In this document: positions 43,634 through 60,717 of the stretch, piece by piece
How the letters are laid out: each line of letters begins with the position of its first letter
Numbering within the stretch: the stretch's first letter is position 1
IMG/VR virus record: IMGVR_UViG_3300034108_000261
DNA length: 64,000 nt
Direction: 5' to 3' (one strand)
Origin: an uncultured virus (IMG/VR IMGVR_UViG_3300034108_000261)
Lineage: Duplodnaviria > Heunggongvirae > Uroviricota > Caudoviricetes
The notes under the pieces: model-generated
Seen by the model: only the letters and a program-made list of their open reading frames with translations
What the model was told of the DNA's origin: nothing
Databases searched by the model: none
Position numbers and translations under genes: made by a program

Positions 43634-43637
43634 AGGC

Positions 43638-43666
43638 TTGACTTTTCCCTAGAAATAGGGTATATT
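43638..43666 (+). promoter_or_regulatory. Early-type promoter TTGACT-N17-TATATT
   Basis: ttgacttttccctagaaatagggtatatt. Confidence 0.75.
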
Positions 43667-43687
43667 GGTAATAATAAGGAGATTGTT

Positions 43688-43912: not shown

Positions 43913-44130
43913 TGCCATACGTTACTACAGAAGTCCATATCGAACTTGATGAGTTTGACGACCGCGAACTAATTGAAGAACTCACAGATCGAGGTTACTA
44001 CGTTAGTAAAGGAACCCAAGATTGTAGAACTCCGCTCGAAAGTCTTTACGATGCATGGGTCTACAAGACTGGCAATTTTGAAGATCTATTTCGGCAATTT
44101 TGCCAACAATCAATTGGGAGAAGTTTTTAA
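43912..44130 (+). CDS. Small hypothetical protein
   Basis: TAATG overlap with the previous gene; ELDEFDD.ELIEEL..RG motif seen in phage early proteins. Confidence 0.7.
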   Translation: MPYVTTEVHIELDEFDDRELIEELTDRGYYVSKGTQDCRTPLESLYDAWVYKTGNFEDLFRQFCQQSIGRSF

Positions 44131-44300
44131 TGTCTACATCTATTCACGATCAGGAACTCGATGAGCACTTCGGTCGAGTTGAAAGCGAACTCAACACACA
44201 AGAAGTAACAGAAACTCCTGTTGTGTTTTTCCGATTCAACGAAGACAAGGACAATCCACTACTTACTTGGACGTGGCACGGTAAACCCCATCGAAGTTAG
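44130..44300 (+). CDS. Small hypothetical protein
   Basis: TAATG overlap (MSTSIHDQELD...); its 3' end overlaps the convergent cyclase gene. Confidence 0.5.
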   Translation: MSTSIHDQELDEHFGRVESELNTQEVTETPVVFFRFNEDKDNPLLTWTWHGKPHRS

Positions 44301-46314: not shown

Positions 46315-47743
46315 TACATGGTCCAGTCGTGCATGTTATTTCCATTTTCGCAGAGTCGGCAGTGGTCAAGTTATTTTGCGTGACAGTTACACCAATTCCA
46401 GGACTATTTAGTAAAAGTTGAAATTGCTTTGCAGAAGCACCTAATTGAGTAACAGATGCAGTAGCGCCACCAAACGGTGCGCTGATATCCAGAAAATGGT
46501 TACCAGTCCCTTGTTGCAAGGTACTGATATTATTAGAGTTTCCTAAAGCATTGATAAACAACGATTTTCCTCCAGCATCTTTTTGTTGCGCTGAGATTTG
46601 ATTGCCAAGTCCATTGGTAATAATCTCGGCGTATTTACTGCCTTGTTGTTGCGTCAACGACACTACGTTGTTATTACCTGTAACGGAAACTTCTGCTAAG
46701 TTCTTACCAATTGGAGTTGTCGCTGTTCCCTGATTAATAGTTACGCTGTTGCTGTTGCCGTTAATCGTCATTGCTTGTGCGCCATTCACACCACGAATTT
46801 GATTCTGCTTCGAGAACTGTTCAACGTAAACAGAATTACTAGAACCAGTTACATTGATGTAGATAGAGTTTTGTGTAATCGCATTTGTTTGATTAATCTT
46901 CAATGATTGGTTCGCGCTGATAGAAGCGAGAGGATATGTTGGAGTAGGAGGAGCAGGTGGAGGAGGTGGTGGCGCAGAAGAACCAGCATTCGGTTGAACT
47001 GGAGTAAATGCTGTTCCATTCAGTGAAGTTGTTCCTTGCATCTGATCAATGAAAAGAATTGGCGACAATGCAGTATCGCCTAGATTGAATGAGGCAAATC
47101 CCAGAAGATAGTTTCCGTCAGCAGGAACTGTGAAGACTGCGACTTGCCAACCAGTGGCACCGTAAGATCCCACAGAATAATTTCCAGTTCCTTGATTGGT
47201 GAATCCCAGAAGCGCGAAGTTTTGAGTTTGCCCGTTGATTGTCGGAGTACCATTACCACCAGTAACAGTGATCATCGATCCATCATTGTATGGAACATAA
47301 TCGGTTGAGACATACTGCCAAGCATAAGTGTATGTTGTACCTGCTTGAAGAAACACTGTTCTACTAATAGAAGTCGCATTGGTAGGATACATGCTACCAT
47401 TAGAGTAAATAGTATTTCTAATTGATGTAATTGTAGAACCTGACAACCCCAAAGTAGTCATGGCGCCATCAAATCCAGGAGAACCATTTCCTGCCTGTAG
47501 CGATACCATGTAAGATCCATACGGAGTTACTGTCCAGCACTTACCGCCACCTGGACAATAGTTAGTCATACCAGTTGTTACTTGAACACCAGAACCACTA
47601 TCACTCCACGAAGTTCTTGTGGCAGTTGAACCGTTACTAACAGTCCAACCAGTATAGTTACCATTTTCGAAACCGTAGTTCGTTACCTGTGCGAACGCTG
47701 GTATCGTAAAGAATAGTAAAAATAGAGCAATTAGTTTTTTCAT
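46289..47743 (-). CDS. Secreted protein: N-terminal beta-sandwich domain, poly-Pro linker, C-terminal curlin-like repeats
   Basis: Signal peptide MKKLIALFLLFFTIPAFA; NYGFENG..GW; PPPPPAPP linker; repeated I...G..N...I.Q units. Confidence 0.65.
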   Translation of the reverse strand: MKKLIALFLLFFTIPAFAQVTNYGFENGNYTGWTVSNGSTATRTSWSDSGSGVQVTTGMTNYCPGGGKCWTVTPYGSYMVSLQAGNGSPGFDGAMTTLGLSGSTITSIRNTIYSNGSMYPTNATSISRTVFLQAGTTYTYAWQYVSTDYVPYNDGSMITVTGGNGTPTINGQTQNFALLGFTNQGTGNYSVGSYGATGWQVAVFTVPADGNYLLGFASFNLGDTALSPILFIDQMQGTTSLNGTAFTPVQPNAGSSAPPPPPPAPPTPTYPLASISANQSLKINQTNAITQNSIYINVTGSSNSVYVEQFSKQNQIRGVNGAQAMTINGNSNSVTINQGTATTPIGKNLAEVSVTGNNNVVSLTQQQGSKYAEIITNGLGNQISAQQKDAGGKSLFINALGNSNNISTLQQGTGNHFLDISAPFGGATASVTQLGASAKQFQLLLNSPGIGVTVTQNNLTTADSAKMEITCTTGPCNGYSYTKN

Positions 47744-48897
47744 CTTGCACCTGTTTCTTGCATCACAGTTATATTACCTTGTGGTCTACCAGTTCCCGAT
47801 GTTGTCCACTTATCGTCTACAAAGTTGTAAACATCTATCAAACCATTTTGAACAGATACAACTTGCGCTTCGTTACCTTTCTCCAACCAGATAGTAACTG
47901 CCTGTTGTCTGTCTTCTGACAGTCGAGTATATACCCAACCGACCTGAACGTTCTTCTTGAATGTTGGTGATACATTAGTATAGACGGTTTCTGCTGGAAT
48001 ACTACCTTCATTATATTCAGCAAAAACTTCTAGTAGTTCTTGTGGTGTTGCTGCTCGACGCATCGACACAGCAACTTGTTCTGTATTATCATTCGTACCT
48101 GCATCGGGATCCTTATTGTCATCCGATGCTGCTTTTGCTGGGTTAGTGAATTTCTTTAAACTATCTCTGGCAAGTTGTAGTAAACTCTGACCATCATCTG
48201 TTTCCAACGGAACAATTTGAACATTGTTGTCTAATGTCTTAATCAAAGGATTGATGACTACTGGTGGAGCAGGAGGAGCAAAGTTATTTTCTACGACTGT
48301 TGCTTGGAATGGTTGGTTCAACGTAACTACACCAGATGCAGTAATAACTTCAATCATACCCGTCGGACATTGAGCAGTTTGTTTTGTGATGTCTAATTCG
48401 TTATAACATTCGGGAACCAGCACGACCGTAGAACGACCTGCTTCATCAACCGACATAACGAAGTCTGTGCCACGAACTGCGATAGTAGCAGTCGGTGTGC
48501 GAATGTTTACGCCTCGTGGGTTTGTTTTCGCGACTTTACCTGATGCGTATCTGACGGTGCCAAGTGCGACCCGAAGTCCAAGTTTGCCCTTCGTCTTCCC
48601 TCCCCCATCATACACAAAGTCGTCCACAAGAAGTCGCGAGTTTTCTGTAATATTAACCGTAGTCGAGTCATTAAATGTAATCCTAAATCTGCCTTGACTG
48701 TTTGTTGAAACAGTGTCCATCTTTTGAACTCGTGCACCCTTAGATGCAACTGTAGTCTTGGCGCCACGCTTAATAGCACCGCCTCCTCTGAAATCTGTTA
48801 TCGACCCAATATCCGCAAAGGCAGGAGTCGATAACAGAAATATCAGTAGAAGATTAGTGACCAGTTTTGATATTAAACGTGCCATTTGATCCCACAC
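47740..48897 (-). CDS. FecR-domain periplasmic protein
   Basis: Signal/TM segment; D.V.T...R.TF.D.T.V.I.ENS.L.VD, G..RY.SG, I.TPTA.IAVRGTDF motifs. Confidence 0.85.
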   Translation of the reverse strand: MWDQMARLISKLVTNLLLIFLLSTPAFADIGSITDFRGGGAIKRGAKTTVASKGARVQKMDTVSTNSQGRFRITFNDSTTVNITENSRLLVDDFVYDGGGKTKGKLGLRVALGTVRYASGKVAKTNPRGVNIRTPTATIAVRGTDFVMSVDEAGRSTVVLVPECYNELDITKQTAQCPTGMIEVITASGVVTLNQPFQATVVENNFAPPAPPVVINPLIKTLDNNVQIVPLETDDGQSLLQLARDSLKKFTNPAKAASDDNKDPDAGTNDNTEQVAVSMRRAATPQELLEVFAEYNEGSIPAETVYTNVSPTFKKNVQVGWVYTRLSEDRQQAVTIWLEKGNEAQVVSVQNGLIDVYNFVDDKWTTSGTGRPQGNITVMQETGAR

Positions 48898-49627
48898 TAT
48901 TAATATTGATCACAGTTTCAGATGCACCATACTGTTGTGTTGTTACAGTGTTTAGCGAACCTGTCAGATTTACATATAGTGAGTGACCGAATGTTCCACC
49001 GAGATCGGTTTGTGTAACATCAAAGTCATTATAGTTGCCTGTCACCAGAATAGTTTGTGACGCATTTGGTGATAGTGCATCCATGTTGATTGTGTTATTG
49101 TTACCGTTGAAATCCATAGAGTTACGGATATTAGCACCCGAACCACGGAAAACAAACGAGTTGTTATTACCAGTGAACTTGGCATTCATGTCGAGTTGAT
49201 TACATGAGGAGTCAGTAACTTCAGTTCCGCAACGAATAGTAGCAGTGTTCAAATCGCCAATTTGACGAATTGTTACATCGGCGATTCCTTGGGCTCCTGT
49301 ATCGGATACGACACCCATATAAAGTTGGTTTCCATTGCCTGTCTGTATTGCGATAACGCTCTGGTTATCACCACGTAGGTAAATAGGATCAAGAGTAGAA
49401 CCGATAACGTTAGCAGTACCAGTTTGAACGATGTTAACATCTACGTTACCCCCTTCTTGATCGATATATACCTTATTTGTTGTTGCAACAGTATTCGCCT
49501 CTGTTTCGTTTGGTGAAGTTGTTACGATTGCTGGAGGAGTTGGTGCTGTTGGCAGCACGGTTTGTGCAATCACAGATGTTCCATAACAAAGAGCAGCGCC
49601 AACTAATAAAAACTTACTTAGTTTCAT
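48854..49627 (-). CDS. Curlin-like subunit (CsgA/CsgB-type repeats)
   Basis: Signal peptide MKLSKFLLVGAALCYGTSVIA; repeated I.Q.G..N units (YIDQEGGN, IVQTGTAN, AIQTGNGN, IRQIGDLN); directly downstream of csgG. Confidence 0.7.
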   Translation of the reverse strand: MKLSKFLLVGAALCYGTSVIAQTVLPTAPTPPAIVTTSPNETEANTVATTNKVYIDQEGGNVDVNIVQTGTANVIGSTLDPIYLRGDNQSVIAIQTGNGNQLYMGVVSDTGAQGIADVTIRQIGDLNTATIRCGTEVTDSSCNQLDMNAKFTGNNNSFVFRGSGANIRNSMDFNGNNNTINMDALSPNASQTILVTGNYNDFDVTQTDLGGTFGHSLYVNLTGSLNTVTTQQYGASETVININSVGSNGTFNIKTGH

Positions 49628-50438
49628 TTGTTGTTTCCTTTTGTTTGAATCTCCATAGATTCTTAGTTTCACCATCCTTGATCAACTCAACAACGGCCGT
49701 TTCTATGGCTGAACGGATCGCATAACTACCTGCTTCATTACTTGTTTGTTGTCCATCAAATTCAAACGCTTTAGTCGCCATATCGAAGAATGTGAAAGCA
49801 GTTACCCCCTCGGAAGTAGAGAGAACAGTTTTCTCTACAGTAACCGAATTGAGGACTTCACCAGTTTGGACAGAAACTAGGCGAAGACTAACTGTAACTT
49901 GGTCTTGTGTGTATTGCTGGTATGGACCGACGCCAAGGAATCTAGCACCAGTACCACCAGTTTTAATATTCGAGTTATAATCAATGATACCACCTTCTAT
50001 GATGATACCTGCAACCTTTAGCGGTGGAAGAGGTTCAGCACCTTCTCCAGAAATCTGTTCGCGCATCTGGCGAACAAGTTGACGTTCTTTAATCAGCGAA
50101 TCGATACCAACACGCTCAACAGGAATAAACCACTTACCATTACCTGTGTCTTGTAGAGTCTTAATCAGATATGCGTCTGCACCCTGAGTTACCGCAGTCG
50201 AGAAACTTGCAAGAGTTGAAGATGGTTTACGTTGACCAGTTCTATCGGTGAACGAATATAATGCGATAGGAATTGGTTGTCCGTCTAACTCAGGAAGATC
50301 CTTGAACAACTTTGGATTAGCAAAACGTTTGACTTCTGCGTCATCTCTGAACAGATATGATTGGTTGGCAGTAGGATGAAGTGCACCAACACAACCAGAA
50401 AGGACGAGCAAAAGCGGAAGGAGAATTAACTTTTTCAT
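49614..50438 (-). CDS. csgG: Curli secretion channel lipoprotein CsgG
   Basis: Lipobox LSGC; Y.F.D.TGQRKP...SFSTAVTQG, WF..VER.G.D.L.KERQ.R, EGGII.Y.SN..TGG.GAR..G.G, Y..D.VTV.LR.VSV.TGE motifs. Confidence 0.93.
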   Translation of the reverse strand: MKKLILLPLLLVLSGCVGALHPTANQSYLFRDDAEVKRFANPKLFKDLPELDGQPIPIALYSFTDRTGQRKPSSTLASFSTAVTQGADAYLIKTLQDTGNGKWFIPVERVGIDSLIKERQLVRQMREQISGEGAEPLPPLKVAGIIIEGGIIDYNSNIKTGGTGARFLGVGPYQQYTQDQVTVSLRLVSVQTGEVLNSVTVEKTVLSTSEGVTAFTFFDMATKAFEFDGQQTSNEAGSYAIRSAIETAVVELIKDGETKNLWRFKQKETTNETK

Positions 50439-50447
50439 AACGTCTCC

Positions 50448-50897
50448 TTAGAATGCGAATGTAGCAATAGGAACGACAACAACCGTAGTGTTACCATTCT
50501 TATCAACAACTGTCAGTCTAACTTCGGTTCCAGTCTTGACGTAACTTACGGAGTTACCGTCGAGGTTGAATGTCCCTGCACTGGCATTTCCACCTTCTGC
50601 GAACAGATTGTTCGAAAGTTGCGTAGCAAGTTGGGCATATACCTGAGAGGTAAACAGCGCCATGAATTTAGCGAGTGGCGTATTAGATGCCTCTGCTCTT
50701 GCTAGTGCTGCCTTTGCTGCCTCAGCATCTTTAATTGCCTGTTCACGCGAACGCTCTTGCGAGTCGATTGATTGCACGTGTGAAGACCACCCATAACCAG
50801 TAAAGGAAGGTGATTTAAATTGTTGGACAATAGGATCTGCGTATACTGGACTACTTAGACTTAGTAGTGCCAGGAGCATCGTCGCTCGTTTTAGCAT
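50448..50897 (-). CDS. csgF: Curli assembly component CsgF
   Basis: Signal peptide then FKSPSF.G; F....SQVYAQL..QL...LF and G.F.L.G motifs; adjacent to csgG. Confidence 0.8.
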   Translation of the reverse strand: MLKRATMLLALLSLSSPVYADPIVQQFKSPSFTGYGWSSHVQSIDSQERSREQAIKDAEAAKAALARAEASNTPLAKFMALFTSQVYAQLATQLSNNLFAEGGNASAGTFNLDGNSVSYVKTGTEVRLTVVDKNGNTTVVVVPIATFAF

Positions 50898-50965
50898 CTT
50901 TCTCTTCCTTTTTGTTTTTGTTGTCAGAAGAAAAATTTAAATCAAAGGAAAATACTTTAAGGATC

Positions 50966-51232
50966 TCAATCTTTAGATTTAGTGTCATTACTGTGATCCT
51001 CTTTTATTTGCAAAACTACACTCACCTTCTGGTTTAATCTAATCAAATCGTTGTCGAGCATACGAACACGATCAATCAACGCAATCAAAATTACGTTTGT
51101 CTCACCAATCAACGGCATCAATTTATCAGTTACGAACTTATAAATGAACCAAACAAAATATCCCATACCGACAGATGCGACGATTGGGAATCCATATTGT
51201 TTAACTAGTTCTGCTACAATTGATGGATCCAT
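50966..51232 (-). CDS. Small single-TM membrane protein (YvrJ/holin-like), paralog of the adjacent gene
   Basis: YGFPIVA..GMGYFVWFI...LIDR.RMLDND.IR. Confidence 0.7.
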   Translation of the reverse strand: MDPSIVAELVKQYGFPIVASVGMGYFVWFIYKFVTDKLMPLIGETNVILIALIDRVRMLDNDLIRLNQKVSVVLQIKEDHSNDTKSKD

Positions 51233-51519
51233 TAATCTTTCCGAGCATCGTTCTTCCCGTCTGCTCGTGCGATTCTGTCTAGATCTGGTTTAAGACCCAA
51301 GGCGGAACTAACAACTGCATCAACGCGAATAATATCATGGTTCATTGTCTTGACTCGGTTGTCGAGTCCCATAATAATACCCTGCATTCCCTTGAGTGCT
51401 TTAACAACGCTCTCGAGAATGTAGTTGATAACAAAATATACGAAGACACCCGCAAGTAAAGCACCTGCGATTGGGAATCCCACATCTCCGATCAATTTAA
51501 ATATAGCATCGTATGTCAT
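51232..51519 (-). CDS. Small single-TM membrane protein (YvrJ/holin-like)
   Basis: VGFPIAG...G.FVYF.I...LDNRVKTMNHD.IR.D......GL.PD..RIARA.GK.DAR.D. Confidence 0.7.
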   Translation of the reverse strand: MTYDAIFKLIGDVGFPIAGALLAGVFVYFVINYILESVVKALKGMQGIIMGLDNRVKTMNHDIIRVDAVVSSALGLKPDLDRIARADGKNDARKD

Positions 51520-51524
51520 ACGAT

Positions 51525-51532
51525 TATTTATA
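51525..51532 (-). promoter_or_regulatory. T4-type late promoter TATAAATA heading the curli/cyclase operon
   Basis: Exact motif 5 nt upstream of the ATG at 51519. Confidence 0.75.
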
Positions 51533-51537
51533 AGAAG

Positions 51538-52653
51538 TTATCTTATAATGTCAATTTTTCCAATTGAGTCAGCATTCCAAACCTCTAAGTCGCGTCGTAA
51601 ACGACCTTCTGCAACCAGATTATCATATCTAGACGTTGCCTTACGCTTCCACCACGAAATAATATTATCCATATAATGTTTATCAAAGTTTTGTCCAGGA
51701 ATTAACTTATCCTGCTTACCGAGAATAACTTCTTTGGAATTTTCATACCCGTATGTTGAAATATAGAAACGTTTCTTAGTAGTAATGTCTTTATTTAGTT
51801 TGAGAGCATCGCAGAATACAGAATAGTATTCGGAGTCATGTTCTTTCAGGGATTTACTGATGATGCTATTCATCTTATTCTGCATCTTCATCTTATATGA
51901 TGCTACACCGTCGCGACCAAACAATGGCGCTCCGCCGTTTTTCTCGTAGAACCATTCCATGGTCTCATCCCAGAAATCGTCTGAGAAAGAGAGAACAAAA
52001 TTACTAAGAGTGTCGCCTGTATAACGAATGAACGGTTTTAGTCCATCATACTGAGATGCTTGCTTGATGCTGCCATATAATGAAGTGGTTTCAAATAGAC
52101 AAGTGTCCATGTTATACTTCTTGTTAAACATCTCGCGAAACTCGTGCGAGGTGCAAAGAAGTGCAAGAAGTTTACCACCCAGATAATTAAATCCGAACGG
52201 TTGAGCAGGAACAATGATGAAACCCATCACCGCATGCTTGTTGAACGATTTTAGATCGGGAACTTGCCCGAACCATTCATTGCGTGGACGTGAATTGATA
52301 AAGGGACTGGCGACGCGACAGAATCCTACGTGCTTACCCGTATTCTTTTCTCTTACGATAAACTTGATTTCCTTCCCGAACGAATTTTCATTACAAAAGG
52401 AAGAAGTGATTTCTACCATTGTCGAGAATTCGCTCGGGGAAGGTTCATAGATCTCAAGATCCATGTCTTCAGGGTGCATATTAAAGTCGGAGAACAAATT
52501 GTTCTCGGGTTCAAACCCTGGAAGAGAGTGTGGAAGGGTTTTTAACCGCTCCAGTTTTTTCATGCGCATGTGGTCGTCAATACGACCATAATTTGACATG
52601 TAGTCAACGAATCGTTTTGCGATGTATTCTGCGTCGTGTTTTTCTAATATCAT
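51538..52653 (-). CDS. DUF4338-like (DruA-like) protein
   Basis: IVP.QPFG.NYLGGKLLALLC.S.E, ETTSLYG, SQYDGLKP motifs. Confidence 0.6.
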   Translation of the reverse strand: MILEKHDAEYIAKRFVDYMSNYGRIDDHMRMKKLERLKTLPHSLPGFEPENNLFSDFNMHPEDMDLEIYEPSPSEFSTMVEITSSFCNENSFGKEIKFIVREKNTGKHVGFCRVASPFINSRPRNEWFGQVPDLKSFNKHAVMGFIIVPAQPFGFNYLGGKLLALLCTSHEFREMFNKKYNMDTCLFETTSLYGSIKQASQYDGLKPFIRYTGDTLSNFVLSFSDDFWDETMEWFYEKNGGAPLFGRDGVASYKMKMQNKMNSIISKSLKEHDSEYYSVFCDALKLNKDITTKKRFYISTYGYENSKEVILGKQDKLIPGQNFDKHYMDNIISWWKRKATSRYDNLVAEGRLRRDLEVWNADSIGKIDIIR

Positions 52654-53196
52654 TTAACCAGTATAAAGCATTTTTTTGATAAAGTCAATGATTTTTTGCT
52701 GATCATCAAAAGATTCATTAAGAAACTCGGTCATTTCCATCTGAAGAACGAAGTTGGAACGAATGTTATTGATTTTACTTTCGCGACCCTTCAACCAAGT
52801 CTCGTCTTGGTTACTACCACGTTCTGCGTAGCGAACATTTCGAGTTTCCTTCGTGGTTTGTAGATAAACGATACTGGTGTCATACTTATCGACACATTCC
52901 TCTAGGAATGAACCTGTGCAAAGACGATCGCCCTCGAAAAGAACAATATCTGTAGCAGCGCGAGATGCAAGAAACTTCACTGCCTCTGGTTGAACTGCCA
53001 TCGACATCTTGTCAGTGCCACCGAAGACTTCACCTTCTTCATACTTACCCAGAACGTAAATGTTGTCCTTGTTATGATAGGGAACCAACTTTACATCAGT
53101 CTTCACTTCACGGGAAATGCCAACCTCGTCTAGCAAACGCTTCATAAGGGTAGACTTACCGCTTCCAGGTTCACCGAAAATTGCAATTACTTTCAT
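52654..53196 (-). CDS. P-loop nucleotide kinase (candidate 5-hydroxymethylpyrimidine DNA kinase)
   Basis: GEPGSGKST Walker A, LGKY....F.GTD.MS, FEGDRL, R...RGS.Q...W..GR motifs; overlaps the aGPT-Pplase2 gene. Confidence 0.75.
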   Translation of the reverse strand: MKVIAIFGEPGSGKSTLMKRLLDEVGISREVKTDVKLVPYHNKDNIYVLGKYEEGEVFGGTDKMSMAVQPEAVKFLASRAATDIVLFEGDRLCTGSFLEECVDKYDTSIVYLQTTKETRNVRYAERGSNQDETWLKGRESKINNIRSNFVLQMEMTEFLNESFDDQQKIIDFIKKMLYTG

Positions 53197-54194
53197 CCAA
53201 ATAAATCCTCTAATCCAACTGATTTCTGTTCAACATCGAACATCCAATTCATTCTATCTAGTGTTCCAGATCGAACGTATTCACCACACTTGTCCTTATT
53301 AACACCATATCGCGAAAGCAGTCGAGAGTCAAGTGTTTCTTCGCGAGATTGCCATAAAACATTCCACTCAATACCATACCAACCGTCTGCTGCTACCTTA
53401 TTGATCTCGTCTGCTTGACGATCTAGATAAAAACCTAGATATCGCGACGACCTTTCTCGGAAGATTTTCTTGAACGAGCAAAGACAGGTTTCCATAGTAA
53501 ATGCGTCGAACTGTGGTGCAAGAGTTGGATACCGATGACGCAATTCATCCAGAATCGACTGAGACTCAGCTTCCAACCACTGGTATTCTTTCGGGGTGAG
53601 TTTACCATTAATCCATTCTTCCTTATTAAGAGCATAACAGAGACCATTGCGGTGCGACTTGCTACCTGAATAGTCATTCAGCATTAGACTGGTAGGTTCA
53701 ATCTTAATTCCTGCAGTATGCTTTAGATGCTGCATATAGAACCAAGTCGTATAACGACCGAACTTGTGATAATTGGTATTGATAACCTTCCAAAGATTAT
53801 CGAAGTTTTGCTGTTCATTATCGCCGTAGTGAGATTCTAGAACTTCACGCTGCGATTTCTTGCCCATAAACTTCTGATACGACTCGAACATAGAAGGCAA
53901 ATGCCCTTTATTGTATTTCGTATCTGTTTGATAACGAAGTCTTTTATAGTTTTCGTTATTCCACCATGTAATACGGTCTACAGTCGCAAGTTCGTAGTCT
54001 GGGAACTCATTCTTGAGCACCCAAGATGTTGGAAGGTAATAGGTGTTACCGTATAACCAGCACAACCAAATACGTTCTTCGTCATTGTGTTCATATCGCT
54101 TATTGAGGTAGTTGGTCTGCCAGACCGAAGGATCGCAATCCTTGTGACTAACAGACCAAGCATACCAGCGAATGAACAATTCGCGATTATTCAT
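53193..54194 (-). CDS. alpha-glutamyl/putrescinyl thymine pyrophosphorylase clade 2 (amino acid:DNA transferase family)
   Basis: W...LYG.TY, DTKY.KG, FGRY..WFY...L, SHRNGL, MET.LC.FKK, RY.G.Y.DR motifs. Confidence 0.8.
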   Translation of the reverse strand: MNNRELFIRWYAWSVSHKDCDPSVWQTNYLNKRYEHNDEERIWLCWLYGNTYYLPTSWVLKNEFPDYELATVDRITWWNNENYKRLRYQTDTKYNKGHLPSMFESYQKFMGKKSQREVLESHYGDNEQQNFDNLWKVINTNYHKFGRYTTWFYMQHLKHTAGIKIEPTSLMLNDYSGSKSHRNGLCYALNKEEWINGKLTPKEYQWLEAESQSILDELRHRYPTLAPQFDAFTMETCLCSFKKIFRERSSRYLGFYLDRQADEINKVAADGWYGIEWNVLWQSREETLDSRLLSRYGVNKDKCGEYVRSGTLDRMNWMFDVEQKSVGLEDLFG

Positions 54195-55732
54195 TCAACA
54201 TAATCTTCTGCAGCAATCCACTCACCAGTTTCCTCGTCATGATACGAGTCGGTTTTTTTATCGTAATAGTGCGTAATCTTACCATCATCATATATTGGAG
54301 TAATGGTATTGCACTCGTCGTATGCTGGAATTTCCATATCAATTTCTGTCATCATGTTTTTGGTAAATGAATCTAAAAGAATAATTTTAAGATTACATCT
54401 AGGATTCATTCTTTTAACTGATGCAGTTAGTTTTTTAAAATATGTATCCCAATTCTCATAATCTGTTAATCCAGCGTGATGCGTAATGATTACACCATCC
54501 CAGATATCCGCCTGTCCCATCTTATTTAGAACACCACCAACACCAGCATTATAAATCGCACCAGAGGTTACTGTAATACTGGCATGATTAGGATACTTCA
54601 AGTCAATTTCTTTTTGAATGTGAGTTAGATCAGTTTTAGAGTATATCTGGTAATTCATCTCAGCAATTGCCTGATCAGTTTTAATTCGCTCAATCGCCTT
54701 CTTCAAATTAGATGAAATGACTGCCCGTGTCCAAACAGGATCGAATTGATGCGTTACGCTTAACTTAAACTTATCGCTCTGCAGTAAAGTAAATTTATCG
54801 TCGTCAAGATCCTTGAGTTTCTTCGCATAACTCTGGATGATTGCACGCTGGCAGTCAGCAGGTGTATTCCCCTTCTTCTTAAATGGTTTATGATTTGCTA
54901 GGTTTCCGTAATAATCGATTGTGCAATCATCGTCATCAAAATCACTGCTATTGATATAGATGACGGGTGCGCTAATCCAACCTGCATCAAGCGCCGCACG
55001 AGAAGTATGGTTCCCATCAATAATTAATTTTGTTCCGTCTGGATATACGACAACAACAATCGGTTGAACATGTTTTCTCGCCTCAGCAGGATCAGACCGC
55101 ATCTGGGTTGCAATTTCATCAACATGTGCAGGATCATACAATTCTGCACGAACCTGATTGTGTCCAAATTCTGCAATTACGGTAATGGGTTCTTCAATTG
55201 TCGTATAATAACCGTTCTTAACCAACTTGAGAATTTTCTTAGCAAGTTTTGTATTAGCAAGAGCAAAAACATCAACAGGTTTCGGTGCAGGTTCAATACC
55301 ATTGATCCAATCGATACCAACCTTAGAATGTTCGACAGTAATTATGGACATATCTAAAATACCTCCATCACCACCACCACCATTACTGGAGTTATACCAC
55401 ATATCATTACGACGAGCATCAGCAGATTTTAGTAGATACCGCTCAAGGATAATAGCAATTCTGGCAGAACCAAAATAAAGAATTGTTCTACGAAGATGAC
55501 CTAATGACCATGCTCGTTGAAGTTCTGGATTTTTAGAAGAGAAAATATATCCATCATCAACATCTGCGCTCTTACGAAATCCGATATAACGCTTGCCAGT
55601 TACAAAGTCATACCAACCATAAACATATCCTTTGGTCTTAGCAGAAATTGTAGATAATAGTTCTTCTATCTCATAATCACAATCGTCAAAACTAGAAACT
55701 TCCTTGATTTGCGGGGTGCGTGTCATTGCCAT
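54191..55732 (-). CDS. Protein with N-terminal GIY-YIG(Seg)-like domain and central ParB/Srx-like domain
   Basis: YVY......GKRYIG......DDGY..SS, later E...L...YN; PIVVV......IIDGNHT..AA. Confidence 0.55.
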   Translation of the reverse strand: MAMTRTPQIKEVSSFDDCDYEIEELLSTISAKTKGYVYGWYDFVTGKRYIGFRKSADVDDGYIFSSKNPELQRAWSLGHLRRTILYFGSARIAIILERYLLKSADARRNDMWYNSSNGGGGDGGILDMSIITVEHSKVGIDWINGIEPAPKPVDVFALANTKLAKKILKLVKNGYYTTIEEPITVIAEFGHNQVRAELYDPAHVDEIATQMRSDPAEARKHVQPIVVVVYPDGTKLIIDGNHTSRAALDAGWISAPVIYINSSDFDDDDCTIDYYGNLANHKPFKKKGNTPADCQRAIIQSYAKKLKDLDDDKFTLLQSDKFKLSVTHQFDPVWTRAVISSNLKKAIERIKTDQAIAEMNYQIYSKTDLTHIQKEIDLKYPNHASITVTSGAIYNAGVGGVLNKMGQADIWDGVIITHHAGLTDYENWDTYFKKLTASVKRMNPRCNLKIILLDSFTKNMMTEIDMEIPAYDECNTITPIYDDGKITHYYDKKTDSYHDEETGEWIAAEDYVE

Positions 55733-55764
55733 AATATAAAAAATCCTTCATAATTTAGACAACC

Positions 55765-55793
55765 ATTATACTAAACTTTAGGGGAAAAGTAAA
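55765..55793 (-). promoter_or_regulatory. sigma70-like promoter TTTACT-N17-TATAAT for the GIY-YIG/ParB-like gene
   Basis: Minus strand tttacttttcccctaaagtttagtataat. Confidence 0.55.
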
Positions 55794-56323
55794 GGGTTTT
55801 CTTCAAGTTTCGCAAATACTTTTACGCATCCGCCTTTACCCTTTCTAAACACTGCTTTGTTAATGACAGTATCGTTGATGTCATACAGACCATCTTGGTA
55901 GGTTGGACCGTTGAGTTTGAACATGGACAGTTGACTGCCTGATTTCTGCTCACCGAGGAAAGTAAATCCACATTTCTCGTAGAATTGGACTGCATCTGCT
56001 TCTGCAGAAACTCGGAAGTATGCAGCGTTGTATCGATGCGCCTCAGCAATAGCAAAGTCACACAACGTCCTGCCAACACCCTTACCACGCGAGGCATAGA
56101 ATGTGTGAAGTAACTGCAGGTTGGCAATGATGGGAGTTCGCTTAGAGAATGATACGATGATAGCGCCGAGAAGATTATCATCTTCCCAGACGCCCATACA
56201 GTTATCCCAGAGTTCTTGCATGTCTGCCTTTGCGACAAAAGTCTTTGCAAAGGAATCTTGCTTCTGAGTTGTAATGTGTTTACTAAATTCTTCGCGACTG
56301 GTTCGACGCAACCTAGACAACAT
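55778..56323 (-). CDS. GNAT-family acetyltransferase
   Basis: LQLLHT....RGKGVGR.L (acetyl-CoA motif A) and A..FYEKCGF (motif B). Start taken at MLSRLRR; the ORF track extends to 56422. Confidence 0.85.
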   Translation of the reverse strand: MLSRLRRTSREEFSKHITTQKQDSFAKTFVAKADMQELWDNCMGVWEDDNLLGAIIVSFSKRTPIIANLQLLHTFYASRGKGVGRTLCDFAIAEAHRYNAAYFRVSAEADAVQFYEKCGFTFLGEQKSGSQLSMFKLNGPTYQDGLYDINDTVINKAVFRKGKGGCVKVFAKLEENPLLFP

Positions 56324-57200
56324 CGTGGAATTCTCGCTTCTTCTCACCGCGAGACTTGTCATACTTGGTATTAATCCAACCAGCGTATTCGTTAAGATCC
56401 CAGATGAATGGAGGGAAGTCAAAGTCGTAGTAATCTAGGATTTCCCTTACACTCGCCCAACTGCCATTCAATGCAGCATCAATAAACGCAGTCGCGAACT
56501 TGAACTGATCTTCAATCTGCTTACGATCGGTAGTTGAACGGAAGCAACGGAACTCAATCGTACCAGTATGCTTCATGCAATACATGTTGATCGCATAACG
56601 GAAAGGACGACCCATGGAAACGCCATCTTTACCTGCTGCATGCATCTTAATAAACGAATCGAAGTCAGTTGCAAGGTTAGCAATGTTATCACACATGTAA
56701 TCAGGCATCTCACGACCACCGTCAAACTTGAGATATGTCGTAGCACCCTTTGCTGACTTCATACCACCACCATCGCGGAACTGATAACACGCTTCAATAG
56801 TGTCTTTCTGGTTTGCCTTGATAAACGCAGTAAGACGCTTCAGTGCATCAATGTCATCTTTCAGACCTGGAACAAAAACGTGAAGGTGTCCATGGTTGAC
56901 GCAGGATGCAGTTGGTTCGTTGCCGAAATCGACAAACAACTCATGAATTTGCATGATGCGATCAACCTGCTCCTCCCACGTGCGAGTTGGTTTGGTATTA
57001 ATCTCGCCACCAAAAGGAGGTTCCACCCCCAATGGGTCACACGCGACAAAACGATACGGTTTGTGAATGTTTACAATGTCAGTTTCCGCAAACTCCCATG
57101 CACCAAGTTCTTCTGGAATCTCAACACGACGATCTATGTCCCCCCACTCAATTTCGTACCCATAAGTGAAGTCTTCAGTATCATATTTCATATTTACCAT
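56313..57200 (-). CDS. Putative amidoligase (glutamine synthetase / glutamate-cysteine ligase fold, COOH-NH2 ligase)
   Basis: YGYEIE, GGEIN.KP, HLHV, RYAIN, GTIEFR motifs. Confidence 0.75.
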   Translation of the reverse strand: MVNMKYDTEDFTYGYEIEWGDIDRRVEIPEELGAWEFAETDIVNIHKPYRFVACDPLGVEPPFGGEINTKPTRTWEEQVDRIMQIHELFVDFGNEPTASCVNHGHLHVFVPGLKDDIDALKRLTAFIKANQKDTIEACYQFRDGGGMKSAKGATTYLKFDGGREMPDYMCDNIANLATDFDSFIKMHAAGKDGVSMGRPFRYAINMYCMKHTGTIEFRCFRSTTDRKQIEDQFKFATAFIDAALNGSWASVREILDYYDFDFPPFIWDLNEYAGWINTKYDKSRGEKKREFHDVV

Positions 57201-57876
57201 ATTGCAAGTCCTTATTATTAGTATTTACTGCTGTTTCAGTAATTTCACCATCAGAAACAGTATAAACTATATTCATGTCACAGTCAATAGTTTTTTCTAC
57301 ACCTGCACGATTAAAAATATCATGAGTAGAAGCAACAATTACGCCATTTTCAGTTCTATACTGTGTAAGTGGGCGTTTACCATTGCGGTAGAAGCGAAAA
57401 ATCTTGTCAGAATGAACTTCACACGCTGAAATTGACGCATCAGGCCAACGTTCAAGTGGATTTTCACCATTTTCAACGGTTTTTAGCAAAAGTTCGCTGT
57501 CATTTCGGGTTTCAGTCGCGTAAGAACTAATTTTTGACCAATTTTCGGGTAATTCTTGTGTAATTACACCGTTATGCACGATTGCAACCTTGTCAGTGAA
57601 CAATGGTTGGTTAAATTCTAGGTCTGAAGTGCTATAACGACAGTGTGCAACCATATAAAGGTTGCCATCTTCATTCAACATGCTATACATGTCAATGCCA
57701 GCAAGGAATTCATCCGCTGGAAGTGGTGCTTTGATGGTAAAGATTGTGTTTTTGCGAACAAACGACACACCTGTTGCGTGTAACCCCCGAATACGAGACT
57801 CGGAGATAACACGCTTCAGAAGCATCATGTCTTCAGCGTTGGGATTTTGAAGAAATGCGCCGACAACACCGCACAT
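57181..57876 (-). CDS. Class II (Ntn) glutamine amidotransferase
   Basis: N-terminal MCG, RG..ATG, H.RYST, QP, HNG.I, DSE, RN..RPL motifs. Confidence 0.9.
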   Translation of the reverse strand: MCGVVGAFLQNPNAEDMMLLKRVISESRIRGLHATGVSFVRKNTIFTIKAPLPADEFLAGIDMYSMLNEDGNLYMVAHCRYSTSDLEFNQPLFTDKVAIVHNGVITQELPENWSKISSYATETRNDSELLLKTVENGENPLERWPDASISACEVHSDKIFRFYRNGKRPLTQYRTENGVIVASTHDIFNRAGVEKTIDCDMNIVYTVSDGEITETAVNTNNKDLQYGKYEI

Positions 57877-59213
57877 TAGAACAAATCCTCTAGTGAAGAC
57901 TCCACCTTGAACGCTGCAGGGTGGAACTTTTCTACAATTTCACGACCCATCTTACCTTCGAGGTATTCATACCACTCAGGTTCGTCCCACATTCCAGGCG
58001 AAACGCCATTCCAGAGTGGGCGATAGAACTTGTGGTTGCGATCCATTCGACGATCGGTTACAAACTGTTCGCGAGTCTGCTCATATTCCCATGGTCCAAG
58101 ATCTAGCATTGCTTCGCGGAAATAGCAAACCAACGAAATGCGTTCAGCATCTGGAGTATCTAGAACAATCTCAGTATTAGCATGCATAATCTCGTGATTG
58201 TTAACAAGCAAAAGATCTCCTGGACGAACGTTCACTGCCATACGATATTCTGGGAATACCAGATAACCACCAGTATAGTTACCCTTACCAACTACCAGAA
58301 GATTCGACAATCCGCTATCTAGATCGCCAGCATCTCGGTGACACGCAGTGCGGAAAGTCTTGTTGACAGTAATGGTGGTAAACACTGTCTCGGGAACGAG
58401 GAAGCGAGGGTCCAACTTGTCTGCCGCTGCTCGTTGATTACCCCAACGCCACGGTAGGAGTTCCTTAAAACCTCTGTCTAGAGACTGGAGGAACGGGAAC
58501 GAAAGAGCAAACTTCTCTGGTTCGTCACGAGTATACGAAGTAGCACGACCGAAGGGAATACGAGGATAACGGTCGAACCAACCAGCAACGCCAGAGAATA
58601 CTGACTTCGCATAGTTAGTCTGCGAAACCCACTTAGTGGCAATCATCTTCGCTTCTTCTGCGCACTGCTCCTTGGTCTTATTATGAAGACCGTCGACCCA
58701 CTTATCGAACCAACCGAAGTATTCGGGATATGTCTTACAGACCTGACTGCGCAACCAGACCTGTCCTCGAGTCTCGTCCTCGGTAGAACGACCTGCGCCT
58801 TCATACTTCTTACGGATAGACTCAATGGAAAGGTCGTCAATCAAACGTCCATCGGTATTCATCAGGAAGTCTAGAACCTCGAGTTCGTAACTGGTAACCC
58901 AATCACGCCCACCACGACCCTCTACGCCAAGAAGTTCTCCGCGAGGTCCAGCAGCGAGTCCACGATTCTGGGATTCTTTTGCTGCCTCGCGGAGACCGAT
59001 GTATGCGGAATCTCGTTCTTCCTGCGTAAACCAGTTCTTACGAAACTTGAACGCAATACGCTGTTCGTCGCCAAGACTTGGAGAACCGAATACCGATTCC
59101 ATGTAGCAGTCTGTGTCTTCATTAATAACAATGTCATAATGACTGTCATCAACATATTGACCGAGCAAATGCTCACAGTCAAGTTTAGACTCAGCAACAA
59201 TAATTTTTACCAT
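57876..59213 (-). CDS. TET/JBP-family 2-oxoglutarate-Fe(II) dioxygenase
   Basis: FTT.TVN..FRTACHRDAGD (HxD), GG.L.FPEY, GDLL....HE..H.NT, R.S.V.Y.RE motifs. Confidence 0.85.
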   Translation of the reverse strand: MVKIIVAESKLDCEHLLGQYVDDSHYDIVINEDTDCYMESVFGSPSLGDEQRIAFKFRKNWFTQEERDSAYIGLREAAKESQNRGLAAGPRGELLGVEGRGGRDWVTSYELEVLDFLMNTDGRLIDDLSIESIRKKYEGAGRSTEDETRGQVWLRSQVCKTYPEYFGWFDKWVDGLHNKTKEQCAEEAKMIATKWVSQTNYAKSVFSGVAGWFDRYPRIPFGRATSYTRDEPEKFALSFPFLQSLDRGFKELLPWRWGNQRAAADKLDPRFLVPETVFTTITVNKTFRTACHRDAGDLDSGLSNLLVVGKGNYTGGYLVFPEYRMAVNVRPGDLLLVNNHEIMHANTEIVLDTPDAERISLVCYFREAMLDLGPWEYEQTREQFVTDRRMDRNHKFYRPLWNGVSPGMWDEPEWYEYLEGKMGREIVEKFHPAAFKVESSLEDLF

Positions 59214-59262
59214 AATATCTCCAAAACTTTTCTTACATTATATGTAGGCAACTTTAAATACT

Positions 59263-59291
59263 ACTATACTAGATTTCTCGACAAATGTCAA
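59263..59291 (-). promoter_or_regulatory. sigma70-like promoter TTGACA-N17-TATAGT heading the modification operon
   Basis: Minus strand ttgacatttgtcgagaaatctagtatagt. Confidence 0.7.
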
Positions 59292-59848
59292 GTCTTTTTC
59301 AGCACATCGTCAAAAGAAATCGGCGTGTAGTTAATCTGCTCCACGCATACACACAGGTAGCGAGGGTCTGGTTCGGTAACAAGTCCAGTCATGTAACCAT
59401 GAACCATGTTGGTTCTTGTATGCATGATCCGATTACCATGCAGGTGACCGTGGACGTTGCGCTTGAACCGCTCACCTACACAGTCTGGGTGAAGAGGAAT
59501 ATGAGACAGGATGAACTGATCCACAAACACGCGAACGCCATGAATCTGCTCGAACCCTGCCCCATAATAATCCTTATCCTTGTAAATGTCATGATTTCCA
59601 CGGATAAGGATTTTCCGCCCATTCAGACGCTTCACTGTTTCCAGATGGCGTCGGGCGATTACTACATCCCCAAGATGATACACTGTATCTTGCGGACGAA
59701 CTGTCTTGTTCCAGTTGTCTACCATTGCCTCGTCCATCTCCTCGGTGGAGGTGAAAGGACGGAGAGGACTACCATCCTCTAGGGTAAACTTTTCCCATGT
59801 GCTGGTATGTCCAAAATGGGTATCACTGATTAGAAATCTAGCTGGCAT
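59288..59848 (-). CDS. Calcineurin-like metallophosphoesterase
   Basis: SDTHFGH, HLGD, GNHD, SHIP, HGHLH motifs. Confidence 0.92.
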   Translation of the reverse strand: MPARFLISDTHFGHTSTWEKFTLEDGSPLRPFTSTEEMDEAMVDNWNKTVRPQDTVYHLGDVVIARRHLETVKRLNGRKILIRGNHDIYKDKDYYGAGFEQIHGVRVFVDQFILSHIPLHPDCVGERFKRNVHGHLHGNRIMHTRTNMVHGYMTGLVTEPDPRYLCVCVEQINYTPISFDDVLKKT

Positions 59849-59987
59849 TTTGCTTTCCGTTGTATATTCGTGTTGCTTCTACACTGAGCGACAATACGGC
59901 AGTTGCATTGATACGACAAGCGATGTTCAAAACAATCCACTTAGCGATGTATGCAGTGATACGTTCTTTGCGACTTAAATTCATCAT
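59838..59987 (-). CDS. Small hypothetical protein (49 aa)
   Basis: MMNLSRKERITAYIAKW...; ATGA overlap with the upstream gene, which ends in a GGAGG RBS. Confidence 0.55.
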   Translation of the reverse strand: MMNLSRKERITAYIAKWIVLNIACRINATAVLSLSVEATRIYNGKQNAS

Positions 59988-60475
59988 GCTGCCTCCTGTG
60001 CTGCACACCACTTGTGATAAAGACCGACTTCGCGACCATATGCCTCGATCTCCCAAGGAGAATCGAAATAGGCATCTTCCTTGCCCTTTGGTTTCCAGAT
60101 TTGACCCATCCACTTGCTGTAGATTTTGAGACCACCACGAGCAGCGACCGCATGACCAGTCGCGAGTTCGTTCTTCGCGTGTTGCTTGACGTGAACCATC
60201 TCGTGACCAAGAACCTTGATCATTTCATTCACGTCTTGGTTCTTGAGACCGATCGTGAACCAGCGAGGGTTCTTCGTGCCGTCCTCATCGACGCACTCAC
60301 CTTCGAGGTCAAAGTTTTTCCAAACTTCGATATCTAGTGTCAGATTTTGAACCATACGAGGGTCCATCAGTTGCGCTGCAAAAAACTCTGCTGCTTTAAT
60401 CAACTTCGCTTTCTCGGCGCGACGACCAATCATTCCCGTTACTGTGATATTCATATTCAATTCCTTCATAACCAA
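59984..60475 (-). CDS. HExxH zinc metallopeptidase-like protein
   Basis: LGHEMVHVKQ and Y...PWEIEAY motifs; the true start may be slightly downstream. Confidence 0.7.
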   Translation of the reverse strand: MVMKELNMNITVTGMIGRRAEKAKLIKAAEFFAAQLMDPRMVQNLTLDIEVWKNFDLEGECVDEDGTKNPRWFTIGLKNQDVNEMIKVLGHEMVHVKQHAKNELATGHAVAARGGLKIYSKWMGQIWKPKGKEDAYFDSPWEIEAYGREVGLYHKWCAAQEAA

Positions 60476-60482
60476 TACAGAC

Positions 60483-60511
60483 AGTATACCCTAAAACGCA
60501 ACAGAAGTCAA
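60483..60511 (-). promoter_or_regulatory. Early-type promoter TTGACT-N17-TATACT
   Basis: Minus strand ttgacttctgttgcgttttagggtatact. Confidence 0.8.
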
Positions 60512-60717
60512 GCCCCTATTAGGTCGTCAAGCACAATATTAATTATTTCTTCGAAGTCATCATCAGGGTGAAGGCGAGTTCCTGCCCAGACATTCATCAT
60601 AAGTCCATCAACATATTCACGGAGTTCTTCACCATGAGTACCAGAGACGCATTCATAGATGTAGTCAAAGGCATCAGGTGCAATGGCGAGAGCATCAAGT
60701 ATTTTTTGTTCAGTCAT
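60508..60717 (-). CDS. Small acidic hypothetical protein
   Basis: MTEQKILDALA... after an AAGGA RBS; the ORF-track start at 60756 is in the promoter. Confidence 0.7.
   Translation of the reverse strand: MTEQKILDALAIAPDAFDYIYECVSGTHGEELREYVDGLMMNVWAGTRLHPDDDFEEIINIVLDDLIGA

Follow-up and report, generated by a model that had tools for sequence, protein, structure and literature searches.

A probable TET/JBP-initiated thymidine hypermodification cassette in an uncultured T4-like myovirus

What does a phage do to the thymine of its DNA when a TET/JBP-family dioxygenase, a glutamine amidotransferase (GATase), an amidoligase-like protein, a GNAT acyltransferase, an amino acid:DNA transferase (AADT) and a P-loop kinase are encoded side by side? 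Such a row of genes lies on the minus strand of a 64,000-nucleotide (nt) stretch, hereafter the window, of the uncultured virus IMG/VR IMGVR_UViG_3300034108_000261 (Caudoviricetes). We put at about 80% the probability that these genes make up a cassette for hypermodifying thymidine after replication, of the kind initiated by a TET/JBP enzyme (5mYOX clade C1, a likeness judged by eye), carried by a T4-like myovirus. Hypermodification of thymine protects phage DNA against restriction and CRISPR nucleases, and it is a source of novel DNA chemistry and enzymes. The lineage that carries the cassette, uncultured and T4-like, is widespread: one AADT query returned 125 related stretches in IMG/VR.

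Enzymes of the row and their conservation

Eight co-oriented open reading frames (ORFs), abutting or overlapping, were found at 51538-59213 (minus strand) in the ORF listing of the window, confirming the co-oriented, mostly overlapping genes that an initial annotation of this DNA had described. Neighbouring genes abutted or overlapped by 1-20 nt, and the sole gap, of 45 nt, separated the GNAT gene from the gene for a 513-amino-acid (aa) protein. The same gene order was found in related viral contigs, showing that the row is not due to chance.

Pfam matched seven of the eight proteins at E ≤ 0.01, and six exceeded the curated cut-off. The dioxygenase (TET) matched Tet_JBP (PF12851) at 5.6e-23 and 81.4 bits, against a cut-off of 34.9, and phrog_24024 at 2.7e-151. 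Its translation contains HRDAGD (HxD), a distal histidine in NNHEIMHANTE, and RISLVCYFR; we take HxD...H to be the iron triad and the arginine of RISLVCYFR to be the 2-oxoglutarate contact. The GATase matched GATase_6 (2.4e-9, 37.7 bits; cut-off 27) and aligned with residues 1-231 of PurF, the glutaminase half only, at 2e-10, far under the cut-off of the PurF model. It starts with MCGVVG (Cys2) and retains the motifs HCRYSTSD, HNGVI and NDSE, in which R, N-G and D-S-E presumably form the glutamine site as in PurF and GlmS; no synthase domain was present in the 231-aa protein. The AADT matched ADDT (PF18724, formerly aGPT-Pplase2) at 1.1e-20 and 74.9 bits (cut-off 26.2) over profile positions 19-231 of 232. 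In 58 distinct AADT sequences Cys20 was nearly invariant and Cys239 invariant, the latter fitting the thiolate mechanism proposed for the family in the available sections of Lee et al. 2021 (PMC8989533). The nearest cultured AADT homologues, Ackermannviridae and Cr30 proteins, were 28-32% identical, a level too low for substrate specificity to be transferred. The kinase matched Ploopntkinase3 (PF18751) at 1.8e-14 and 54.2 bits (cut-off 27).

The GNAT matched Acetyltransf_10 (1.8e-12, 47.8 bits; cut-off 23.6), and its nearest NCBIfam model was Sat2 (9e-6). The ORF extends over 55778-56422, or 214 aa from TTG 56422; the likely start is ATG 56323, giving 181 aa, relatives having 182-205 aa. The amidoligase matched Amidoligase_2 (PF12224) at 17.2 bits, below the cut-off of 22, and over 36 residues only. 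However, 15 of 16 aligned homologues matched the same model at E ≤ 0.1 (best 2.6e-8), so that the call appears weak for the window protein and appears to hold at the family level. The family has 602 database homologues and the invariant motifs ExE, GGE.NTKPT, HxH and TxEFR; among the matches listed, 0 of 120 homologues carried a precomputed Pfam domain, and comparison of the family with PDB profiles gave only noise at E > 1. The families proposed in the initial annotation were therefore recovered above cut-off for TET/JBP, the Ntn amidotransferase, GNAT, AADT, the P-loop kinase and the DruA/DUF4338-like protein, and at family level only for the amidoligase; 53193-54194 and 57876-59213 fell in the proposed families and not in unrelated ones. 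What that annotation had overlooked was the gene in the middle of the row, which encodes the 513-aa protein with a ParB fold.

The closest cultured homologues of the window TET were found in the phages DLP6 (48% identity), C48C1 (46%) and Cr30 (44%). DLP6 and Cr30 were considered as carriers of the same cassette and rejected, since TET was located outside such a cassette in both inspected records. In Caulobacter phage Cr30 (locus L002) the TET homologue (10001-11302), an AADT-like gene (13147-13899, 32%) and a kinase-like gene (18361-18888, 34%) were spread across about 9 kb. The TET homologue of Stenotrophomonas phage DLP6 (locus L001, 10001-11347) is annotated as 'SNF2 DNA repair protein' and ends in TLGDFFV. 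Both phages, as cultured homologue carriers, are usable for base measurement.

From the 125 stretches 80 were kept, all with a single AADT family of 62-100% identity. The 80 loci were compared by tblastn of the window proteins and by ORF maps, and 20 of them were fully covered, with at least 6 kb upstream and at least 1.5 kb downstream of the AADT gene. The order was fixed as TET-GATase-(amidoligase-GNAT)-(slot)-AADT-(small ORF)-kinase, where the slot is the place of the 513-aa gene. TET, GATase, AADT and kinase form a fixed core, amidoligase and GNAT are an optional pair, and the ParB-like slot is swappable (Table 1). The conserved co-occurrence for which the initial annotation had proposed to look was thus found; its pairing of amidotransferase with amidoligase was not, since the GATase was present in all 20 loci and the amidoligase in 15, showing that the GATase travels with the core and not with the amidoligase. 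Cassettes lacking the amidoligase had a different GNAT, of 213-220 aa, between GATase and AADT, and three variants carried additional enzymes. Within this AADT family, tailoring appears to be combinatorial. No match was obtained when 51538-59291 was compared with 50,697 phage records by Megablast.

The initial annotation had also placed the row under one sigma70-like promoter. The match TTGACA-17-TATAGT was the top sigma70-like match of a consensus scan of 50800-60600. However, sites with 10/12 consensus positions were also present inside the row (57287-57259 and 52688-52660, minus strand), so that a single-promoter operon was not established. Across the same interval 34 sigma70-like sites were observed versus 22.6 ± 4.4 in shuffles, indicating a weak enrichment.

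Two observations concern the promoter-like sites and their surroundings. A 51-nt direct repeat (73% identity) at 43385-43435 and 43628-43678 (plus strand) carries TTGACT-17-TATACT/TATATT and precedes small ORFs (72-74 aa) on the plus strand; its hexamer pair occurs also at minus-strand positions 60511, 57287 and 52688, and is probably an early promoter type of the phage. Directly upstream of the TET promoter lies a metallophosphoesterase gene (59288-59848, minus strand; PdeM-like at 3e-9, phrog_547), and a copy with 44% identity is found in the relatives L073, L075 and L076, in L073 about 5 kb downstream of the cassette.

Table 1. Positions of the row and of cassette variants, with occurrence in fully covered related loci (all 20, and the 17 with AADT under 95% identical) and counts of polymerase-like C-terminal tails
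Feature	Position	Strand	Basis or remark	Of 20 loci	Of 17 diverged loci	Strict tail	Looser tail
sigma70-like promoter match TTGACA-17-TATAGT	59263..59291	-	11/12 consensus positions, upstream of TET gene; consensus match only				
TET/JBP-family dioxygenase (5mYOX), 445 aa, predicted thymine-to-5-hydroxymethyluracil oxidase on DNA	57876..59213	-	Pfam, PHROG, motifs	20/20	17/17	39/44	41/44
Stand-alone class II (Ntn) GATase domain, 231 aa	57181..57876	-	GATase_6, motifs	20/20	17/17	0/55	0/55
Divergent Amidoligase_2-like protein (glutamine-synthetase-like COOH-NH2 ligase), 295 aa	56313..57200	-	Family-level PF12224 matches	15/20	12/17	0/42	0/42
GNAT acyltransferase, 181 aa from ATG 56323 (loci: window-type GNAT)	55778..56323	-	Acetyltransf_10	13/20	10/17	6/40	26/40
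513-aa ParB-fold protein, candidate TET activator in swappable slot (loci: window-type)	54191..55732	-	PHROG, PDB profile, predicted model	7/20	5/17	0/15	0/15
AADT (aGPT-Pplase2), 333 aa	53193..54194	-	Pfam ADDT			72/80	79/80
P-loop kinase, 5-hydroxymethyluracil DNA kinase family, 180 aa	52654..53196	-	Pfam Ploopntkinase3	20/20	17/17	0/73	0/73
DruA/DUF4338-like GNAT-fold protein, 371 aa, neighbour outside module	51538..52653	-	Pfam DruA	3/20	0/17		
Replacement slot protein	L011:2605-4041, L012:1343-2842, L015:2320-3858, L016/L018:8470-10008						
Variant L032	7504-8106 and 9424-9993		Two 2OG-Fe(II) (2OG-FeII_Oxy_5) oxygenases added				
Variant L058	10974-14458		Two radical-SAM genes added, one with a weak B12-binding match				
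Variant L017	7855-8652 and 9586-10008		TET-associated glycosyltransferase and low-molecular-weight phosphatase added				

Source of the hydroxymethyl group and polymerase-like tails

Five related records, four of them 92-100% complete, were searched for thymidylate and methylation genes. ThyX was found in all five, whereas Thymidylat_synt (PF00303, the ThyA family including dUMP and dCMP hydroxymethylases) and DNA_methylase (PF00145, C5-methyltransferase) were found in none; the control searches for the ThyA family, C5-methyltransferase and ThyX gave matches in 10, 9 and 5 of 14 reference genomes. Among the ORFs scanned in the 64-kb window there was likewise no ThyA-type hydroxymethylase or C5-methyltransferase. 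This pattern fits the incorporation of ordinary T that is then oxidised in DNA. The hydroxymethyl handle is therefore probably made on DNA by the TET/JBP enzyme and not by a dUMP hydroxymethylase, as the initial annotation had supposed.

The C-termini of two cassette enzymes resembled those of phage DNA polymerases. The window TET ends in SSLEDLF and the window AADT in VGLEDLFG; among the 290 window ORFs with 50 aa or more, three had the loose form of this pattern, two of them TET and AADT. The family-B polymerases of four related genomes end in ASLEDLFT, SSLEGFFG, ASLEDFFG and SSLESFFG, and T4 gp43 ends in ASLDFLFG. In the 150-kb relative G002 two of the 699 ORFs, those of polymerase and AADT, matched the strict pattern, against 0.018 expected by chance, and the TET of this genome ends in SSLADLF, one residue off the strict pattern. 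Across the related loci the tail was frequent on TET, AADT and many GNATs (Table 1; counts exclude loci L001-L003, matches covering less than 70% of the query and matches running off the locus). Judging from these tails, the enzymes are probably attached to the sliding clamp and act directly behind the replication fork. If base-modifying enzymes are indeed recruited by the clamp, this would account for a post-replicative pathway keeping up with replication.

The T4 literature offers a precedent. In the available parts of the source (PMC2988020), gp43, gp55 and gp33 have similar acidic-hydrophobic C-termini and are interchangeable ligands of gp45, and T4 alpha-glucosyltransferase is reported to co-purify with gp45 (PMC13216743, consulted in part). 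The cassette enzymes share with the T4 sliding-clamp ligands an acidic-hydrophobic tail at the extreme C-terminus, of the form S/G-L-E/D-x-F/L-F, as in gp43. The difference is that here the tail, as a putative clamp ligand, stands on a dioxygenase and a base transferase. The window tail is identical in kind to the polymerase tail of its own lineage, and a DNA-modifying gp45 binder has a T4 precedent. Full-text literature searches found no paper linking phage TET or AADT enzymes to the clamp; in the available sections of O'Toole et al. 2026 (PMC13229309) the few mentions of 'sliding clamp' concern ParB or KorB clamps, and no clamp tail is mentioned there. The polymerase-like tails on TET and AADT are thus an unpublished-looking feature.

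A different C-terminal motif was seen on the GATases of the window (57181-57230) and of related loci, which carry [K/V]-D-[L/Y]-Q near the end (e.g., NKDLQYGKYEI, KDLQYEL, AVDYQL) in tails that are otherwise variable. This motif may be a docking motif for a partner.

The ParB-fold slot and the proposed chemistry of the cassette

For the cassette as a thymidine hypermodification pathway, the following sequence of steps is proposed. ThyX would make dTMP, and ordinary T would be incorporated. TET/JBP would then hydroxylate T in DNA to 5-hydroxymethyluracil (5hmU), as its family, its context and published homologues suggest, and the ParB-fold protein may assist it. Judging from their families, the P-loop kinase would phosphorylate the hydroxymethyl group to give 5-phosphomethyluracil, and the AADT would replace the phosphate with an amine nucleophile. 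The Ntn glutaminase would most likely supply this as ammonia from glutamine, giving 5-aminomethyluracil, and the optional amidoligase and GNAT might acylate or cap the amine to give an amide-bearing base. Because the GATase is intact, lacks a synthase domain and always accompanies the TET-AADT-kinase core, ammonia donation to the AADT step is the simplest reading of its presence. The complete scheme, in which TET, AADT and many GNATs ride the clamp behind the fork, the glutaminase feeds ammonia to the AADT to yield 5-aminomethyluracil, and amidoligase and GNAT acylate it to an undescribed base, is put forward tentatively and at less than even odds.

The 513-aa protein that may assist TET gave no match in the Pfam scan. 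However, a PHROG ParB-like match was obtained (6.9e-6), a profile of the protein and its relatives matched the PDB chains of Noc (7ng0) and ParB (1.1e-4), and PF02195 was precomputed for 6 of its 60 database homologues. The top Foldseek matches of its AlphaFold2 model (pLDDT 83.7, pTM 0.71) were Noc, MxParB (M. xanthus), BsParB (B. subtilis), CcParB (C. crescentus) and KorB, with E from 4e-5 to 5e-4. Three domains were distinguished: a GIY-YIG-like domain (about 34-116), a ParB/Srx-fold nucleotide-binding domain (about 162-354, with Z 8.5 against pNOB8 ParB-N in VIA-align) and an alpha/beta C-terminal domain (about 362-470), whose many alpha/beta and nuclease-like matches were weak (Z 4-6) and pointed to no clear fold. 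In the model the ParB fold appears clear, and the protein sits where published clusters carry the ParB activator of the dioxygenase, with a different architecture.

The content of the slot changed readily among relatives. Where flanking genes were 91-100% identical, a different protein of 478-512 aa without the GIY-YIG-like N-terminus was found in the slot (Table 1). In L014 the slot protein was only 83% identical when the flanking genes were 94-100% identical, and in many cassettes the slot was empty. A profile of the slot protein was built, because the Pfam ParB_N scan of related genomes was too insensitive and missed the slot protein even in G004; it found a homologue in G002, G004 and G006, two small GIY-YIG-only ORFs in G003, and none in G005. 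The slot looks like a hot spot of gene replacement within the cassette.

It is accordingly a serious possibility, if short of an even chance, that the 513-aa GIY-YIG/ParB gene is no TET activator and is instead a selfish, homing-endonuclease-like insert, or a nuclease against unmodified DNA, in such a hot spot. Residues 34-116 of the model matched the GIY-YIG catalytic domain of I-TevI (VIA-align Z 6.4, root-mean-square deviation 2.9, 79 aligned residues, 23% identity) and UvrC GIY-YIG (Z 4.1). The N-terminal sequence reads YVYGW...YIGF...E97...N114, with E97 and N114 invariant in 35 sequences of the family, and the stand-alone GIY-YIG-only ORFs of G003 resemble this N-terminus and lie elsewhere in the genome. 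The empty slots, the different protein of about 500 aa in relatives that are 96-97% identical, and the divergence seen in L014 also favour an insert. By contrast, the arginine position expected from I-TevI was not conserved in the family consensus (by eye), making nuclease activity doubtful; the replacement proteins retain the ParB signature motif; and a ParB-fold protein beside a clade C1 5mYOX is exactly the activator context described in the available sections of O'Toole et al. 2026.

A second alternative concerns the GATase, which might be a thiol hydrolase that donates no ammonia and trims a glutamine or gamma-glutamyl adduct made by AADT or amidoligase, leaving an SP10-like glutamyl base. 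We consider this unlikely. Amidoligase_2 families are said, in the Pfam text of PF12224 and by Iyer et al. 2009, to neighbour GATase-like thiol peptidases. SP10 DNA contains alpha-glutamylthymidine, and glutamate is the postulated substrate of the transfer step there (PMC8989533). However, the window GATase retains the full PurF-type glutaminase motif set, including motifs that bind free glutamine in such enzymes, and a GATase was present in all five fully covered cassettes without amidoligase.

The same distribution bears on a third and improbable route, in which TET would oxidise T iteratively to 5-carboxyuracil and amidoligase with GATase would amidate it to a 5-carboxamide, in parallel to the kinase/AADT route or in its place. 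Carboxylates are usually converted to amides by an ATP-dependent ligase together with a glutaminase. In the window the genes for TET and GATase share a single base, and in most related loci they are neighbours. Published phage T-dioxygenases also 'support iterative oxidation of T' in the available text of PMC13229309. Against this, kinase and AADT were present in 20 of 20 cassettes and the amidoligase was missing from 5, indicating that the invariant partners of the GATase are kinase and AADT. A cytosine pathway, with TET acting on 5-methylcytosine as in the clade A/B phage TET systems, is very improbable: the TET/JBP family includes 5-methylcytosine oxidases (PMC8256090) and published T-dioxygenases also oxidise 5-methylcytosine in vitro (PMC13229309; both sources consulted in part), but the C5-methyltransferase searches of the five related records and of the window ORFs were negative, and kinase and AADT are thymidine-pathway enzymes in the literature portions used.

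For the TET-initiated thymidine pathway with ammonia donation and clamp tethering, the following observations weigh on the opposite side. Every chemical step is deduced from sequence. A single AADT family served to retrieve every locus, so the 'core' holds for that family only, and the absence of hydroxymethylase and C5-methyltransferase covers the relatives and the 64-kb window only. The nearest characterised AADT relatives (ViI-type, 28-29% identity) use serine in the literature portions consulted, and the cassette here contains no tailoring enzyme dependent on pyridoxal phosphate or flavin adenine dinucleotide (FAD); the GATase might act as a hydrolase instead of supplying ammonia. In this phage the gp33-like protein has the C-terminus DDGILPL, without the tail motif, showing that the motif is not common to every expected clamp ligand. 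The architecture of the 513-aa ParB-fold protein is unlike that of the published activators, the protein is missing from two of four near-complete related genomes, and it may be no TET activator at all. In relatives that are 96-97% identical the slot replacement shares with it just one 21-column motif ('VVVYPDG..DGN'), which was all that hhalign aligned between the two kinds of slot protein (probability 5%), leaving full-length homology unsupported.

Genomic surroundings and published systems

The initial annotation had counted the DUF4338-like gene at the end of the row in the pathway. However, this gene was present in 3 of 20 fully covered loci and in none of the 17 diverged ones, and copies with 47-52% identity are found in T4-like cyanophages and Pelagibacter phages without the cassette. 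It abuts the kinase gene and has a promoter-like site of its own at 52688-52660. Pfam DruA matched residues 85-193 only (1.2e-11, 44.8 bits; cut-off 27), and the protein has 5876 database homologues, compared with 602 for the amidoligase and 60 for the slot protein. Its predicted model (pLDDT 83.3) has a GNAT-like core with SpeG (6vfm, E 7.6e-4) and RimI-type acetyltransferases as top Foldseek matches, and one record labels a homologue 'methylcarbamoylase mom'. The homologue in S-SSM7 lies between the clamp-loader genes gp44 and gp62. A Druantia defence system, in which DruA is accompanied by DruB-E with the large helicase DruE, was ruled out by the partial DruA match, by the neighbours (the kinase and two small phrog_18771 genes) and by the S-SSM7 clamp-loader context; no helicase-like (DruE) partner turned up in the Pfam and PHROG scans of the window ORFs. 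The gene is common among marine T4-like phages and stands outside the module. The two phrog_18771 genes, tandem paralogues of 88 and 95 aa at 50966-51519 (minus strand), lie directly downstream of the DruA-like gene and are retained with it in close relatives.

PHROG and Pfam matches to baseplate wedge and hub, tail tube, gp32, gp59, gp33-like, PhoH and DenV-like glycosylase proteins place the window in the genome of a T4-like myovirus. The gp6-like baseplate protein of the window was only 36.6% identical to its nearest cultured counterpart, that of Pelagibacter phage HTVC008M, and the nearest virus record had 56% of sampled words in common with the window.

Other gene clusters were noticed elsewhere in the window, on the minus strand. 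At 33650-42326 there are five tandem radical-SAM genes (35994-37154, 37136-38425, 38409-39602, 39584-40921 and 40902-42326), two with an N-terminal SPASM match, beside a carbamoyltransferase gene (33650-35077) and a gene for 312 aa without any match (35146-36084); together they might form a second cluster, for modification or for a natural product. The interval 43250-44300 was considered as a source of radical-SAM precursor peptides and rejected, as it holds instead small plus-strand ORFs behind repeated promoter-like elements. A 683-aa protein (44263-46314) combines a CHASE2 sensor (4.8e-38) with an adenylate/guanylate cyclase domain (9.4e-18) and matched phrog_35576 over its full length. A curli-like row at 47740-50897 comprises FecR-like (47740-48897), weak curlin-repeat (48854-49675), CsgG (49614-50438, 1.5e-52) and CsgF (50448-50897, 3.9e-16) genes; three of the four have PHROG families, indicating that other phages carry curli-like genes.

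The initial annotation had known of no characterised pathway with this enzyme set. The set is in fact already in print in the available sections of Lee et al. 2021 and O'Toole et al. 2026, and only its product is uncharacterised; literature searches found no paper reporting the product of such a cassette. The pathway logic has been published as a genomic class, so the proposal was right in kind and not new. Lee et al. 2021 (PMC8989533) reconstituted the kinase and AADT steps for M6, ViI and PaMx11 and described metavirome contigs with TET_JBP in place of dUMP hydroxymethylase, together with amidoligase and glutaminotransferase genes of unassigned function. Their contigs with TET_JBP, 5-hydroxymethyluracil DNA kinase and aGPT-Pplase2 (Fig. 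2, sequences 22-25) resemble the window in lacking a dUMP hydroxymethylase, and in them 5hmU was predicted to arise in situ through TET_JBP and to serve the kinase and AADT encoded next to it. In the sections available, the functions of the amidoligase and glutaminotransferase were left open and no product was measured.

O'Toole et al. 2026 (PMC13229309) provide the enzymatic counterpart in the sections available. Phage 5mYOXs of clades C1 and C2 oxidise T to 5hmU; for clade C1 this was seen both in E. coli and in vitro, with some members active only alongside their cognate ParB. Those clade C1 T-dioxygenases that depend on ParB are 'consistently linked' with GATases, P-loop kinases and AADTs. 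The clade C1 neighbourhoods agree with the window in having TET/JBP without a C5-methyltransferase beside a ParB-fold protein, GATase, kinase (PF18751) and AADT (PF18724), and MxParB and CcParB are the closest structural matches both for the ParB-like proteins described there and for the 513-aa protein. By eye, the window TET shares FRK...NRG..AG, G..DR.PR.P..R, FTT.TVN...T..H.D.GD and ERIS.V.Y.R with the tested 5mYOX171-198. However, it has 445 aa, with a longer insert and a longer C-terminal tail, compared with about 300-340 aa for the tested enzymes, and the window ParB-fold protein has extra GIY-YIG-like N-terminal and alpha/beta C-terminal domains compared with the described arrangement of nucleotide-binding domain, linker and C-terminal domain without a DNA-binding domain. 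None of the tested constructs described in those sections came from the contigs found here.

Pseudomonas phage PaMx11 makes 5-acetylaminomethyl-dU with the gp49 kinase, gp46 Gly:DNA transferase, gp47 FAD lyase and gp48 acetyltransferase. As far as the consulted portions describe it, it shares with the window the kinase, the AADT, an amine unmasked on the C5 methyl and acetylation by a GNAT, and this acetylation probably parallels, in chemical terms, what the GNAT of the cassette does. PaMx11 differs in incorporating 5-hydroxymethyldeoxyuridine during replication and in using an FAD enzyme to unmask the amine from a glycine adduct. In the window TET replaces the hydroxymethylase, and glutaminase and amidoligase stand in place of the FAD enzyme.

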